From assembly GCA_036918135.1 (NCBI GenBank), contig JBALDB010000018.1:32001-96000 (forward strand): a stretch of 64,000 nt of DNA. Reading direction: 5' to 3'. The notes beneath the pieces were generated by a model that searched no databases, had not been told where the DNA came from, and worked only from the letters and a program-made list of their open reading frames with translations. Below, one piece after another: positions 4,275 to 32,996 of the stretch (the stretch's first letter is position 1; each line of letters starts with the position of its first letter). A program made the position numbers and the translations under genes. The DNA is from Nostoc sp. (lineage in GTDB: Bacteria > Cyanobacteriota > Cyanobacteriia > Cyanobacteriales > Nostocaceae).

Positions 4275-4378
4275 TGTAGTATCTCCTTGACAATATGTAT
4301 TTTATATATTACAAATGTAGTATGAGAACAAAAGCTTTTCTAAAAGGCTAAGGCAAAACATCTCAGAACCTAGAAAAC
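4275..4378 (+). promoter_or_regulatory. Putative promoter/leader of the RNA array: TGTAGTAT repeats, TTGACA, boxB-like hairpin and boxA-like element
   Basis: TGTAGTAT 4275 and 4316; TTGACA 4287; hairpin AGCTTTT-CTA-AAAGGCT 4333-4349; GAACCTAGAAAAC 4366-4378. Confidence 0.5.
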
Positions 4379-4401
4379 CGAATAGCAAGTTACGACTTTT
4401 T

Positions 4402-4482
4402 GGGGTCGCGATTGGTGTTCGACTGCTCCGAAACCAACAAACGGACGGTAGCAGGATTCGGGTTCAATTCCCGACGACTCCA
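4402..4482 (+). ncRNA. Mini tmRNA-like RNA (tRNA-like domain only)
   Basis: GGGGTCG/CGACTCC-A acceptor with G3.U70; unpaired D-loop ending TTCGAC; helix CTGCT/AGCAG; T-arm TCGGG-TTCAATT-CCCGA; no tag ORF. Confidence 0.7.
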
Positions 4483-4499
4483 CTGACTTCTACTTGTTT

Positions 4500-4706
4500 G
4501 GGTCTGTAACTCTAATGGTAGAGCGCCCAGATTCACTTGTGCTCTGACAGAAAAAGCTTACATACTTGCTCAAAGGTAGAGCGATCGTCTCTAAAACGAT
4601 AAGTGCAGGTTCAATTCCTGCGGTGTAACCACAGCTTTTTCAACTCGCACGAAGTGTGAGTGCAACTCTCACAGGGAAGGTATCGGTTCAATTCCGATCA
4701 GATCCA
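4500..4706 (+). ncRNA. tRNA-like RNA whose anticodon arm is replaced by scaffold cassette 1
   Basis: Acceptor GGGTCTG/CAGATCC-A; D-arm ACTC-TAATGGTA-GAGC; T-arm ATCGG-TTCAATT-CCGAT. Confidence 0.7.
4534..4656 (+). ncRNA. Scaffold cassette 1 carrying a tRNA body with CUA anticodon
   Basis: GTGC..GAAAAAGC-TTACATA..GCTTTTTC-AACTC-GCAC; D-arm GCTC/GAGC; ATCGT-CTCTAAA-ACGAT; GCAGG-TTCAATT-CCTGC. Confidence 0.75.
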
Positions 4707-4732
4707 CTAAATAATTTGTAATTCGTAATTAA

Positions 4733-4948
<216 letters not shown>

Positions 4949-4961
4949 AATATTTAGTTAA

Positions 4962-5141
4962 CCATGCCCTAACAGAAGAAGCATACATACACATTCATAA
5001 CGATCCTAAGGTAGTAAAATTCGAGCGATCAAACTAGCGAAGTATGATTTATAAATTTTTTGCAGATTTAGCATACGTGCCCACTGCCAATAGTTGGTAA
5101 GAGCGATCGTAAGCTGTAAAAAGCTTCTTAAACTTGTACGG
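4962..5141 (+). ncRNA. Scaffold cassette 2 carrying a permuted 23S rRNA domain IV (H67-H71) mimic
   Basis: AAGAAGC/GCTTCTT stem; ATAACGATCCTAAGGTAGTAAAATTC vs 23S ATAACGGTCCTAAGGTAGCGAAATTC. Confidence 0.7.
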
Positions 5142-5156
5142 ATTAATTGAAGAATT

Positions 5157-5300
5157 AATTCCGCGCCCTGACTTGTAAAGCATACAAACATATATCCGGT
5201 AACGGAATACAGGTTCGATTCCTGTCGCTCCCTTTGATGGGAGCGTAGCCAAATTGGTAAAGGCAACTGTGAAAACTGCTTTGCTAACTTGTGCGGAATT
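5157..5300 (+). ncRNA. Scaffold cassette 3: circularly permuted tRNA (YrlA-like Y RNA architecture)
   Basis: T-arm ACAGG-TTCGATT-CCTGT; acceptor CGCTCCC-TTTGAT-GGGAGCG closed by a loop; D-arm GCC-AAATTGGTAAA-GGC. Confidence 0.8.
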
Positions 5301-5361
5301 TCAATTATTTAAAATAGTAGTGTTTAGAGCAAGCCTTAGTGATTTTTCAAAACTAAAACTT

Positions 5362-5491
<130 letters not shown>

Positions 5492-5649
5492 TATAAATAT
5501 TAGATTTGGCAAAATTTTGATTGAGTGGAGGAAACTTATGCTCAAAGCTTTTAAAGACAGATTTTAAATAAAAAATCTTAATTTTAAAGCTATTAACTGG
5601 AATTAAAAACAATACTATTTATTGCAATTTAATATGATTTGAGGCTGCT

Positions 5650-6030
5650 ATGTCTGTGAACACTCTAGAAATTTTAGAGCAAATCAAGTCTCTAAATGTC
5701 AATGAAACCGCTCAATTAGTAAAGCAGATTGAAGCAACTTTCAATGTCGATATATCCACACCTAAATTCCTTAAGATTGACAAGCGAGATGAGGATGAAA
5801 CTCAACCGCAGATTCAAACGGAATTTGATGTCTTGTTGGTATCGGTTCCAACAGAGAAAAAGATTGCCTTACTCAAGGTCATCCGGACGGTGACTGGACT
5901 GGGACTCAAAGAAGCAAAAGACTTTGTAGAATCCCTGCCTCAAGTAGTTCAAGCAGGACTGAATCAAGAAGCGGCTGAAATTCTTAAGCAGCAGCTAGAG
6001 GAAACAGGAGCAGTTGTTTCTCTGATGTAA
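5650..6030 (+). CDS. rplL: Divergent ribosomal protein L7/L12 paralog
   Basis: TEFDV..KKIALLKVIRTVTGLGLKEAKDFVE C-terminal domain; no rplJ/rplA/rplK adjacent. Confidence 0.85.
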   Translation: MSVNTLEILEQIKSLNVNETAQLVKQIEATFNVDISTPKFLKIDKRDEDETQPQIQTEFDVLLVSVPTEKKIALLKVIRTVTGLGLKEAKDFVESLPQVVQAGLNQEAAEILKQQLEETGAVVSLM

Positions 6031-9240: not shown

Positions 9241-9549
<309 letters not shown>

Positions 9550-9735
9550 TGAAATCATTCTGCGTATGCAGATAAAGGTTTTGATGCTCTGAGTAATTTA
9601 GCTTTTTTGTCTTTGTTGAAATAAGGCTGTAAATTAAAGGGTTTAAGATCCGCTTTGTAGGCATAACTAGCAGCCAAAATATTTACCGGAAAGTAACAAG
9701 TGTTAATTGTAGTATAATGTAGTATTAGAATCTCA

Positions 9736-9938
9736 TGCGTGCCCCAACTCGTGGAGCCTACATATTAGTACGAGAGGAAGGTAACACTGCCGAATGCAGT
9801 GGGCGTTAGTGAACGGGGAGTGCGAAGAACCTGGAAAGTGGGCTTAGAAGTAGCCATCTTTGAAAGAGTGTGTAACAACTCACCAGCGGAGTCCCTCTAG
9901 TAACTGAGAAAACGCAATGCTCCACCAACTTGCACGCA
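9736..9938 (+). ncRNA. Scaffold cassette 6 carrying 23S sarcin-ricin loop and H42-H44 GTPase-centre mimics
   Basis: TGCGTGC/GCACGCA; GTGGAGC/GCTCCAC; AGTACGAGAGGA 9767-9778; GGCTTAGAAGTAGCCATCTTTGAAAGAGTGTGTAACAACTCAC. Confidence 0.8.
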
Positions 9939-10030
9939 GAATTATACAGTAATCTTAAATTATTCGTTAGAACCAAGATACCCGACTTCTTTTGAAAAGT
10001 TGGGTATCTAAACCCTACTGAGCGATAAAA

Positions 10031-10551: not shown

Positions 10552-11382
10552 ATGACTGACATCCGTAAGCTAATCAACCAAATTGCTAGCGCAGAAGCAC
10601 AGTTGTGTAATACTCAATTTCTTGCGCCTTGTGTAAAAGGTGGACGAGTTCGCACACGAGTAGTAGGGATGGTCTATACCTTCACACCAAAGCCGAATAA
10701 ATTTGAAGGTTGGGGTATTTTTCAGCCGGTGGATGAGAAGATAGCAATGGTTGTGGAAGAGGCAGATTTACCTCAAATTGCCGAATACCTGCAACACTTT
10801 CCCCAAATACGGCTGCGGCTAGCATACCAACTGCGGGGACAAAGTTGGTTAGCATACCCCGTGAATGAAGCAGATATACGTCAACGGTTGCAGGTGGTTA
10901 AACCGATCGCCATTCATCTAGTAACTGAAAGTATTATTTTTGACCAAATCATCGCCCGTTGGAATGGACAGTCCTGCTGGTTTGAGGAAATCGATCATCG
11001 TACCGATCCGGCTATTGTTGAAACTCTGCAATCAGCTGTTAAGCAACTGATTCCCGTTGAAGAATTGCAATTTAAAGGCATAACGCCAGAAATTCGCACA
11101 GTCTATGAATTAGCAACACGGCAAATTGAAGGCTTTGGGCAACCCCAACAGGATGAAAAGCGATTGAGAAAGGCATTGCAGATGGGTGGCGGTGAATTAA
11201 AGCAGTTTCACGATCGCGGTGATTACTGGACAGTGGACTGGACAACTGCTGATGGTGTTCGCCACAGTAGTGCGATCGCCAAAACTGACTTGACTGTAAT
11301 CAGTTCTGGTATTTGCCTAAGTGGATACGATCGCAACTTTGACTTGCAATCGTTAGTTGGTGTAATGGAACAACAAGAGTAG
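10552..11382 (+). CDS. Hypothetical protein with possible E2-like C-terminal Cys motif
   Basis: 276 aa ORF 24 bp upstream of ThiF; SSGICLSG near C-terminus. Confidence 0.7.
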   Translation: MTDIRKLINQIASAEAQLCNTQFLAPCVKGGRVRTRVVGMVYTFTPKPNKFEGWGIFQPVDEKIAMVVEEADLPQIAEYLQHFPQIRLRLAYQLRGQSWLAYPVNEADIRQRLQVVKPIAIHLVTESIIFDQIIARWNGQSCWFEEIDHRTDPAIVETLQSAVKQLIPVEELQFKGITPEIRTVYELATRQIEGFGQPQQDEKRLRKALQMGGGELKQFHDRGDYWTVDWTTADGVRHSSAIAKTDLTVISSGICLSGYDRNFDLQSLVGVMEQQE

Positions 11383-31367: not shown

Positions 31368-32996
31368 TCATTCCTCCACTGGTTGTTGACTAGAAAATAC
31401 TGGGGCGATCGCGCTTAATTTCAACTCTGCATGGTCACTCTCTAACTGTTGACAATTCCATTCATTCCGGAATAGCAACACTGGGCGTCCCATACTGTCT
31501 TTGACTGTAGTGGTATTGAATAAACGTCCCACCTGATTTAATGCTTCCCAACCACCTTCAACCCAACGGGCGACACTGTAGGGTAATAAATCTAGTATGG
31601 TTTCTACACCATACTCATTTTGTAAGCGAAACTGCACCACCTCAAATTGCAACTGACCCACCGCCGCTAAAATTGGATCGCGCTTGGCTTCATCAGTTGA
31701 ATACATAATTTGCACAGCACCTTCTTCGCGCAATTCCGCAACACCTTTTTGGAATTGCTTAAACTTCGAGGGGTTGGGGTTCCTGAGAGTTGCAAACAGT
31801 TCCGGCGAAAAATACGGAATGCCTTCATATTCCAGCTTTTGCCCCGTGTAAATTGTATCCCCGATCGCAAAAACACCGGGATTGTTCAAACCGATCACAT
31901 CGCCGGGATAAGCCTCATCAATCGATTCCCTCTCCTGAGCAAAGAGTTTTTGCGGACGGGAAAGACGGACAAATTTACCAGTGCGAGCGTGATTCACCAT
32001 CATATCTTTTTCAAACTTACCAGTGCAGACCCGGACAAATGCGACGCGATCGCGGTGTTTCGGGTCCATGTTTGCTTGCAGTTTGAACACAAACCCAGAA
32101 AACTCTGGGTATGTGGGAGGAACTTCACCAACAGTGCTGTTGTGAGAACCGGGTTTGAGGGCATAGTCTAGGAAGTACTTGAGGAATAACTCTACCCCAA
32201 AATTTGTCATGGCGCTACCAAAGAATACTGGCGTCATTTTGCCTTCATGTATCAACTGCAAATCTAGCTCTGGGCCAACTCCATCTAACAGTTCTAGATC
32301 GTTTTTCAGTTGATAGTACAGGTCTTGTTCTAGCAGCTGTTCTATTCTTCGATCGCCTAATTCTACTATCGTATCACGAGCTTCTCGGCTGCCGTGGGCA
32401 CTGCGTTCAAACAAGTGAATTTGTTGCTTGTGTCGGTCAAAGACACCTTTAAAGCGATCGCCCATGCCGATCGGCCAGTTTACGGCATAAGTTTGCAATC
32501 CCAATTCTTGCTCAATCTCGTCTAAAAGTTCTAGAGGTTCTCTTCCTGGGCGATCGAGCTTGTTGACAAATGTAAAAATCGGGATACCCCGCAGCTTACA
32601 CACTTCAAACAATTTGCGGGTTTGCGGTTCTAAACCTTTGGCCACATCAATCAGCATCACTGCATTATCAGCGGCAGCCAGAGTTCGATAAGTATCTTCA
32701 CTGAAATCCTGGTGACCAGGTGTATCTAATAAATTTATTTGGCAGTTCTGGTATGCAAATTGCAACACCGTGGAAGTAATCGAAATACCCCGTTGTTGTT
32801 CCATCGCCATCCAATCTGACGTAGCTTTACGCTGTGCCCGTCGCGCCTTGACCGCCCCAGCTTCGTGAATTGCACCTCCGTATAGCAGTAGCTTTTCTGT
32901 CAGTGTAGTTTTACCAGCATCAGGGTGAGATATAATTGCAAAGTTGCGCCGAAGTTCAACTGCGCGATCGAGTTCAGACTCAAGTTCAATTGACAT
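31368..32996 (-). CDS. prfC: Peptide chain release factor 3
   Basis: [23 protein letters not shown]. Confidence 0.98.

Follow-up and report, generated by a model that had tools for sequence, protein, structure and literature searches.

Why should a short element beside a Ro60-like gene contain a strand almost identical to 23S ribosomal RNA (rRNA), and what might such a strand do outside the ribosome? The question is raised by a locus of Nostoc sp. that lies in the window analysed here, a 64,000-nucleotide stretch covering positions 32,001 to 96,000 of contig JBALDB010000018.1 (assembly GCA_036918135.1). The element, hereafter unit 2, occupies 4962–5141 and is the second of four adjoining units; all coordinates are positions in this 64-kb stretch, and unit 2 lies on the + strand. 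A preliminary description made from the sequence alone had read it as a circularly permuted mimic of 23S domain IV, opened at the loop of helix 69 (H69). Using a reference 23S, an alignment of relatives and a survey of the linked genes, we find that unit 2 carries a permuted and covarying copy of the H67–H71 junction between flanks that close it into a separate fold, and that it travels with a diverged member of the Ro60 family.

A permuted copy of the 23S H67–H71 junction

The strings quoted in the preliminary description were located at 4997–5022 (ATAACGATCCTAAGGTAGTAAAATTC), 5078–5090 (TGCCCACTGCCAA) and 5094–5112 (TTGGTAAGAGCGATCGTAA), the last two separated by TAG. Because the assembly of this strain contains no real 23S gene, the reference was taken from a related Nostoc (locus L082, 2831 nt; hereafter r23). 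The stretch 4997–5022 is identical to r23 1846–1871 at 23 of 26 positions and reaches a Smith-Waterman score of 37, against 20.4 ± 2.3 for dinucleotide shuffles, none of 200 of which attained that value; a genuine Nostoc 23S therefore bears out the proposed match to the H69 3' strand and its continuation. When the whole 23S was compared with the whole window by BLAST, this 26-mer was the second-best match (E 0.012), and the three best matches all fell within units of the locus. The Rfam consensus structure placed on r23 gives the 26-mer model positions 1942–1967, which we take to correspond to E. coli 23S 1916–1941.

Full-length homologs of unit 2 were found in 44 of the 80 Nostocaceae loci with a Ro60-like gene, where they are 81–97% identical to it. 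Among 401 sampled genomes of the class, 11 have one, ten of them recognised by BLAST across most of its length and the eleventh being the divergent L099. A pattern of the module core matched 19 metagenome sequences, of which 18 are full-length homologs. The nineteenth metagenome match (L119) was dropped as a real 23S with an insertion, and L101, with a 40-nt match only, was dropped as a non-member. A profile search of a further 20 Ro60-like loci gave closing-stem matches only, plus one weak full-length-like match in L133, and viral contigs yielded no match to the module pattern. Removal of duplicates left 68 distinct homologs, with identities of 70–97%, of which 67 were aligned (alignment A1), L102 (251 nt) being left out for its length.

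Most of these relatives are nearer to 23S than the Nostoc copy itself. Their commonest long-range helix is ACGGCC/GGCCGT, L120 is identical over the core (26/26), L092 matches 23S without a difference over 29 nt, the complete H69 loop included, and L114 retains GCCCAGTGC and ACGGCGGTCGTAA. Identity of the 26-mer to 23S ranges from 18 to 26 positions over the 67 aligned homologs, with a median of 23, and the family profile hidden Markov model matches r23 1846–1871 with an E-value of 1.6e-8. The profile of A1 columns 128–182 has its best 23S match at r23 1757–1784 (E 0.0055). Searched apart, its halves have their top matches at r23 1757–1773 (E 0.073), the strand after H67 with the base of H68, and at 1829–1843 (E 0.097), the 3' strand of H68 with the 5' strand of H69; a profile of columns 160–182 likewise has its top match at 1829–1843. 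Since both half-profile matches fall at the places that circular permutation predicts, the likeness extends past the 26-mer, and the flanks are collinear with 23S after permutation. The claim that the end of the cargo resembles the rRNA segment normally preceding the 26-mer is borne out in this way; likeness beyond the 26-mer holds at the family level only, this copy by itself not reaching significance there (see below).

The fold was assessed with a structure of 47 pairs in nine helices, written from the 23S layout and counted on the 67 sequences of A1. Derivation from these same sequences favours the share of cells paired, the measures that count pairs being less biased. With this structure 94.9% of cells are paired, against 22–41% when the partners are slid by one to three columns. 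Two-sided changes occur in 31 pairs, against 14.8 ± 1.9 in shuffled alignments (0 of 500 reach 31) and 9–17 in slid ones, and the covariation score is 0.228, against 0.144 for shuffles and at most 0.067 after sliding. The closing stem formed by the two ends (P1a and P1b, 13 pairs of which 11 show two-sided changes) flanks a conserved internal loop with an invariant A and ACT, and its P1b flank repeat recurs in units 1, 3 and 4.

Within the module, H69, the base of H68 and H67 are all formed with covariation. The H69-like helix shows the compensatory change that had been noticed in its stem and, because GATCG/CGATC belongs to a covarying helix of six pairs, the suspicion that this string is a HIP1 accident can be set aside: it is one of several compensated variants. 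The H67-like helix, proposed as GTATG/CATAC, is GUAUG/CAUAC here, GCAUG/CGUGC in most Nostocaceae and AUCGC/GCGAU in L093, and is a genuine helix at the place of H67. The reduction of H68 to a stub is equally well supported: its helices are 98.5% and 97.4% paired, five of the seven pairs of the stub hairpin change on both sides, the pair at columns 138/172 is CG in 58 sequences and UA in 9, and the base keeps the layout of 2 + 2 + 5 pairs of the Rfam consensus for real 23S. The hairpin at the place of H71 alternates between UUCGA/UCGAA and UUCAG/CUGAA and keeps a GNRA loop in 67 of the 68 homologs. Given no structure beforehand, RNAalifold likewise arrives at P1a, the H69-like helix and the H68 stub; the other pairs that it prefers in the middle of the element hardly ever change on both sides. 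Its GCGA/UCGC pairing was rejected, as it shows almost no two-sided changes and crosses the better-supported H67-like helix, and as L095 and L097 lack UCGC.

In 23S the order of elements is H67 5' strand, H68, H69, CUAAG, H71 and H67 3' strand. Unit 2 runs from the H69 3' strand through CUAAG, the hairpin, the H67-like strand equivalent to the 3' one, the cap, the H67-like strand equivalent to the 5' one and the H68 stub to the H69 5' strand. The circular order is identical in both; a hairpin closes the old ends and the new ends face the closing stem. In this copy and those of the Nostocaceae the break lies inside the H69 loop, with four of the loop bases left on one side and one or two on the opposite side, this copy keeping only the last four and the first two. 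The proposed opening at the H69 loop is therefore right for these copies, but not for 6 of the 68 relatives, which retain the loop whole on the 5' side and also carry a partner strand on the 3' side, so that the break point differs among lineages. In L092 and L107 the 3'-side partner strand has, as read by eye, a G-G mismatch where a local closing pair could form. Overlapping ends trimmed differently in each lineage would be the pattern expected if the permutation arose via tandem duplication.

Features of unit 2 and of the surrounding locus (positions in the 64-kb window; "two-sided" counts pairs with changes on both sides, and percentages are cells paired in alignment A1)
Feature	Position	Strand	Properties
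P1a, closing stem	4962–4967 with 5136–5141	+	6 pairs, 5 two-sided, 98.3% paired; also found by RNAalifold
P1b, closing stem	4976–4982 (AAGAAGC) with 5123–5129 (GCTTCTT)	+	7 pairs, 6 two-sided, 94.9% paired
23S-like strand	4997–5022	+	H69 loop end, H69 3' strand, CUAAG mini-hairpin, strand leading to H71
H69-like helix	5000–5005 (ACGATC) with 5105–5110 (GATCGT)	+	6 pairs, 5 two-sided, 93.3% paired; also found by RNAalifold
Hairpin at the place of H71	5020–5033	+	5-bp stem, GNRA tetraloop GCGA; 98.2% paired, 2 two-sided
H67-like helix	5042–5046 (GTATG) with 5072–5076 (CATAC)	+	92.8% paired, 2 two-sided
Cap hairpin on H67-like helix	5051–5058 with 5064–5071	+	8 bp; 89.2% paired, 4 two-sided
H68 base and stub	5078–5104	+	G5079-C5104, C5080-G5103; C5084-G5101, T5085-A5100; 5086–5090 with 5094–5098; loop TAG
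H69-like 5' strand, then AA (start of H69 loop)	5105–5112	+	Structure count; profile match to r23 1829–1843
Conserved open reading frame (ORF), 69 aa	4739–4948	+	Directly upstream of unit 2; tblastn 62–80% identity in distant loci
L7/L12 paralog	5650–6030		Between the units and the Ro60-like gene; TIGR00855, 100.7–101.6 bits
Ro60/TROVE-like ring and vWA protein, 477 aa	6239–7672	+	Profile against PDB, AlphaFold model, Foldseek
ORF, 276 aa, no family match	10552–11382		Conserved downstream of Ro60-like gene
ThiF/E1-like protein, 212 aa	11407–12045		Conserved downstream of Ro60-like gene

The Ro60-like gene and the other units of the locus

The gene for the 477-residue protein starts 1.1 kb downstream of unit 2. 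All 11 sampled genomes with unit 2 encode the Ro60-like protein, and the two short BLAST matches in genomes without it are a 25-nt match to a flank and a spurious 40-nt match. Among the eight distant loci that carry unit 2, the gene lies 1.5–2.3 kb downstream of it in four, on the same contig at 14–15 kb in two and on other contigs of fragmented assemblies in the remaining two. Unit 2 thereby shows the adjacency to, or co-occurrence with, a Ro60/TROVE gene that is one of the marks of a Y RNA.

A profile built from 49 relatives of the protein matched, in PDB, human Ro60 (9nen, 5.9e-16), a phage Ro60 (9l5y, 1e-14), Xenopus Ro (1yvp, 1.2e-12) and Deinococcus Rsr (2nvo, 1.5e-6), and 11 of the 49 relatives match Pfam vWA_Ro60. 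Its AlphaFold2 (AF2) model has a pLDDT of 91.7, and the best 12 Foldseek matches listed are all Ro60/TROVE chains, matched over the full length with TM values of 0.63–0.71. By profile and predicted fold, the protein is a diverged member of the Ro60 family. The 120 best-matching database clusters carry names from several cyanobacterial orders and are all at least 80% identical, and the protein was found in 44 of the 401 sampled genomes of the class, including 3 of the 18 in the family of this Nostoc. It is 85–87% identical to its counterparts in three other families of the class (f20, f26 and f28) and 74–76% in a family of the same order (f3). This higher identity across families than within the order suggests horizontal transfer. 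The sampled genome of the same genus is without the gene, and viral contigs contained no relative of the protein. At 9334–9516, just upstream of a fifth unit, lies a fragment copy of the gene covering residues 250–310 at 90% identity.

Other genes accompany this pair. At 5 of the 8 and 18 of the 20 distant loci the 69-aa ORF lies beside the units or the Ro60-like gene, and the 276-aa ORF and the ThiF/E1-like gene often come after the Ro60-like gene there. The E1-like protein matches the E1-E2 defence-system models of PADLOC (best 2.2e-18) and NF058523; the 69-aa and 276-aa proteins matched no family in PADLOC, NCBIfam, Pfam or the protein atlas. The 69-aa protein ends in a single Gly, and that it serves as a ubiquitin-like carrier is only a guess. 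The L7/L12 paralog, 510 bases downstream of unit 2, is 48% identical to the canonical L7/L12 encoded on contig C27 (157 bits) and, among distant loci, was found only in L139.

Unit 2 shares its frame with its neighbours. The 5' flanks of the four adjoining units are copies of one 31-nt repeat, starting at 4539, 4964, 5163 and 5369, and their 3' flanks form a matching repeat family able to pair with them. Between these flanks, units 1 and 4 carry a transfer RNA (tRNA)-like cargo in normal order (ARAGORN; Rfam tRNA 49.8 and 51.1 bits), and unit 3 a permuted tRNA-like module with a weak YrlA match (24.1 bits, gathering score 69). Unit 5 (9735–9945) has the same closing-stem flanks, and its cargo reaches the Rfam gathering score for bacterial large-subunit (LSU) rRNA (51 bits, model positions 1093–1148), matching r23 1058–1127 in the L11/GTPase-associated region. 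A second, weaker match of this cargo (BLAST E 1.9) is to r23 2573–2596, presumably the sarcin-ricin loop (SRL). BLAST with the unit from the window found unit 5 in 72 of the 80 Nostocaceae loci, and BLAST with 23S found its GTPase-centre-like segment in 49 of 108 Ro60-like loci. Over these 108 loci, 23S-like DNA clusters at two 23S regions only, near r23 1058–1135 in 49 and near r23 1838–1871 in 30. Just upstream of the units, 4402–4485 resembles a transfer-messenger RNA (tmRNA) of which the tRNA-like domain alone is left (43.2 bits against a gathering score of 47), with both ends of the tmRNA model present and 22 nt in place of its 314-nt middle. The locus is one scaffold with exchangeable modules, for which the word "cargo" is apt.

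Some further observations concern these units and their cargoes. By eye, 4503–4537 and 4664–4707 look as though a single tRNA-like fold had been split between them, its 5' half in the former and its 3' half in the latter: GGGTCTG can pair with CAGATCC, one half has a D-arm, the other has a T-arm, and the whole of unit 1 sits at the place of the anticodon loop. The tRNA-like cargo of unit 1 (4558–4630) has the anticodon CTA according to ARAGORN, and the corresponding cargo elsewhere has varied anticodons, TTA among them. In L135, L137 and L144 a recurrent unit between the 69-aa ORF and the Ro60-like gene carries another cargo, conserved among these loci and containing GGTGCGTATCTG...GCTGCAAGCCTGA...AGCAGGC. 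Elsewhere in the genome of this strain, on the minus strand of contig C56 (190530–190586), a stretch apart from both the unit locus and the canonical rplL resembles r23 1068–1125 (80% identity over 59 nt), perhaps as a further mimic or as the leader of a ribosomal-protein gene.

A proposed ribosomal bait and its rivals

By analogy with bacterial Y RNAs, we propose that unit 2 holds out the interface core of the 50S subunit to a ligand that recognises it, and so tethers this ligand to a Ro60-like particle or titrates it; we give this reading a probability of about 0.6. Unit 2 would be a Y-RNA-like noncoding RNA whose ends form the conserved two-part closing stem common to all units, by which the Ro60-like ring protein presumably keeps hold of the RNA. 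The variable module is a copy of the core of the 23S domain IV junction (H67–H71), derived by circular permutation, in which H69, formed from both ends of the module, would stack towards the closing stem and the H67-like helix is capped by a hairpin instead of continuing into the rest of 23S. Such a module may act as a bait, recruiting to the Ro60-like particle, or sequestering from use elsewhere, whatever recognises this part of the ribosome: an rRNA-modifying or rRNA-processing enzyme, a recycling or rescue factor and the decoding region of the 30S subunit are candidate ligands. The likeness to 23S, the fold, its conservation and the linkage with the Ro60-like gene are established here; the binding, the ligand and what becomes of it we infer from bacterial Y RNAs, in which a tRNA-like module engages tRNA enzymes and other modules tether Ro60 to PNPase. 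The frame shared with the tRNA-like units and the second rRNA-like module, in unit 5, also favour this reading. A weak hint of transcription comes from RNA-library contigs of relatives, none of them from this strain: contigs from two studies cover 4354–5492, without giving ends or strand and with DNA carry-over possible.

Several observations weigh against this proposal. The H69-like module is dispensable for the system, as the 44 of 80 Nostocaceae loci already show, and it is optional beyond them, since 19 of the 20 further Ro60-like loci have units with no clear copy of it. Neither H71 nor the H69 loop is retained as such: half of the loop, its best-studied functional part, is absent from this copy, and a profile of A1 columns 71–100, the hairpin at the place of H71, has no 23S match. 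The 3' part of this copy alone is not significant against 23S (score 17, with 167 of 200 shuffles as high). The Rfam model LSU_rRNA_bacteria does not match unit 2 and gives 6.6 bits (E 5.3) on L122, the most 23S-like relative examined. One pair of the H69-like helix, at columns 54/175, is unpaired in 14 of 67 sequences (12 C-A, 2 A-A), a position that is a G-U pair in real 23S. On the protein side, Pfam finds only vWA in the 477-aa protein and its TROVE model no match, and the closing stem lacks the bacterial Rsr motif GNCGAAN0-1G published in PMC4201824, and GGUCCGA as such.

A wider interpretation, which we put forward tentatively, is that the set of RNAs bound by the Ro60-like protein rebuilds, outside the ribosome, the surfaces contacted by translation factors and the small subunit, the particle serving as a surrogate ribosome by which translation factors, or agents aimed at the ribosome, are caught, tested or silenced under stress or conflict. 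These surfaces would be tRNA, the tRNA-like domain of tmRNA, the H69 core, and the SRL with the GTPase centre, and the SRL/GTPase-centre module would be accompanied in Nostocaceae by its own L7/L12 paralog. The main rival to the bait reading sees in the locus a conflict system, in which the units are decoys or sensors that draw nucleases or modifying toxins directed against translation, and in which the Ro60-like/vWA, 69-aa, 276-aa and E1-like proteins detect the resulting damage or respond to it. In its favour, the modules reproduce targets known for RNA toxins, the gene set (69-aa ORF, units, Ro60-like gene, 276-aa ORF and ThiF/E1-like gene) is conserved, the E1-like protein matches defence-system models, and the patchy, transfer-like distribution resembles that of mobile accessory systems. 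However, the other four proteins of the locus have no PADLOC match, the H69 core is no textbook toxin target, and neither a nuclease nor an effector gene is apparent next to the locus; we consider this explanation rather unlikely. The negative searches of viral contigs bear on neither side of it.

The remaining explanations fare considerably worse. Mimicry of rRNA by leaders is an established principle, and an L7/L12 paralog does lie downstream, so that unit 2 might be a cis-acting, autoregulatory leader of this paralog or of the Ro60-like gene. Yet two more units intervene before the paralog, it was found in none of the eight distant loci carrying unit 2, two genomes place unit 2 14–15 kb from the Ro60-like gene, and unit 2 has its own closing stem, common to the tRNA-like units, which makes a leader very improbable. 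We give next to no credence to a relic or a chance resemblance, whether as the decaying remains of an rRNA gene or as intergenic DNA, rich in HIP1, with a fortuitous likeness to 23S. The GCGATCG-like strings in this copy and the insignificant score of its 3' part fit that idea, but every helix covaries and the element persists at full length in metagenomes and in more than one cyanobacterial family, most relatives have GGCCG/CGGCC and not the HIP1-like form, neat capped hairpins replace H68 and H71, and the identity range of the homologs speaks against recent mutual copies. It is just as hard to credit a degenerate YrlA-type tRNA-like module with GCCAA...TTGGTAAGAGC as the remnant of its D-arm. 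The neighbouring units are tRNA-like and TTGGTAAGAGCGATCG resembles the D-arm string of unit 1; against this, 4955–5150 has no tRNA, tmRNA or YrlA match in Rfam at E-values up to 10, unit 2 lacks a T-arm motif and its helices fit the 23S layout.

Unit 2 among known RNAs

The roles of bacterial Ro60 and Y RNAs are largely open, their known modules being tRNA-like or PNPase-binding. The conserved, permuted copy of the 50S interface core and its sister unit with the SRL and GTPase centre point to the ribosome as the theme of the system, and unit 2 gives precise baits for pull-downs. It is also a natural case of a small rRNA junction folding alone with H68 and H71 reduced to caps, which is of interest for studies of how rRNA folds and binds ligands, and it illustrates evolution through circular permutation. 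No Rfam 15 family covers the element, and the full-text literature searched contains no description of unit 2 or of such 23S mimicry in Ro60-associated RNAs; bacterial Y RNAs are described there only as tRNA mimics and PNPase tethers, and a 2026 preprint on tRNA mimics mentions neither Ro60 nor 23S.

The closest known system is that of the bacterial Y RNAs. According to Chen et al. (2014; PMC4201824), a stem binds the Ro60 ring and a module engages another protein, as for PNPase in Deinococcus and for the tRNA enzymes that act on the tRNA-like module of YrlA, and few YrlA RNAs are reported from cyanobacteria. Like YrlA (RF02553), unit 2 lies beside a gene of the Ro60 family and combines a stem formed by its ends with a module modelled on one of the RNAs of translation. 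As with bacterial Y RNAs, several paralogous RNAs occur in one locus, and unit 3 is itself a permuted module of the YrlA type. By contrast, the module of unit 2 copies 23S H67–H71 and not tRNA and has no Rfam YrlA match, its stem is without the published GNCGAAN0-1G, and the protein is too diverged for Pfam TROVE. Unit 2 stands outside YrlA because the defining tRNA-like module was tested for and not found.

Compared with the H67–H71 region of 23S itself (RF02541, model positions about 1856–2000), unit 2 shares the near-identical 26-nt strand and leaves the circular succession of H69 stem, H68 base and H67 closing helix unchanged, and some relatives keep the H69 loop and longer identical runs. 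It differs in being permuted, shorter (about 130 against about 150 nt) and placed outside the ribosome within a foreign closing stem, with H68 cut to a 5-bp stub, a GNRA hairpin for H71 and a capped H67. In the leaders of ribosomal-protein operons (L1, L10, L20), a short RNA copies the protein-binding site of rRNA and acts in cis in the 5' untranslated region, whereas unit 2 seems to exist as an RNA of its own, built on a Ro60-type scaffold, and copies the core of the subunit interface. Permuted RNA genes are known from the two-piece cyanobacterial tmRNA (RF04321) and from permuted tRNA genes, in which the halves are swapped and a new loop closes the old ends; those RNAs keep their original job, whereas unit 2 is a piece of rRNA taken from the ribosome. 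We classify unit 2 as a Y-RNA-like scaffold with an rRNA-derived, circularly permuted module.

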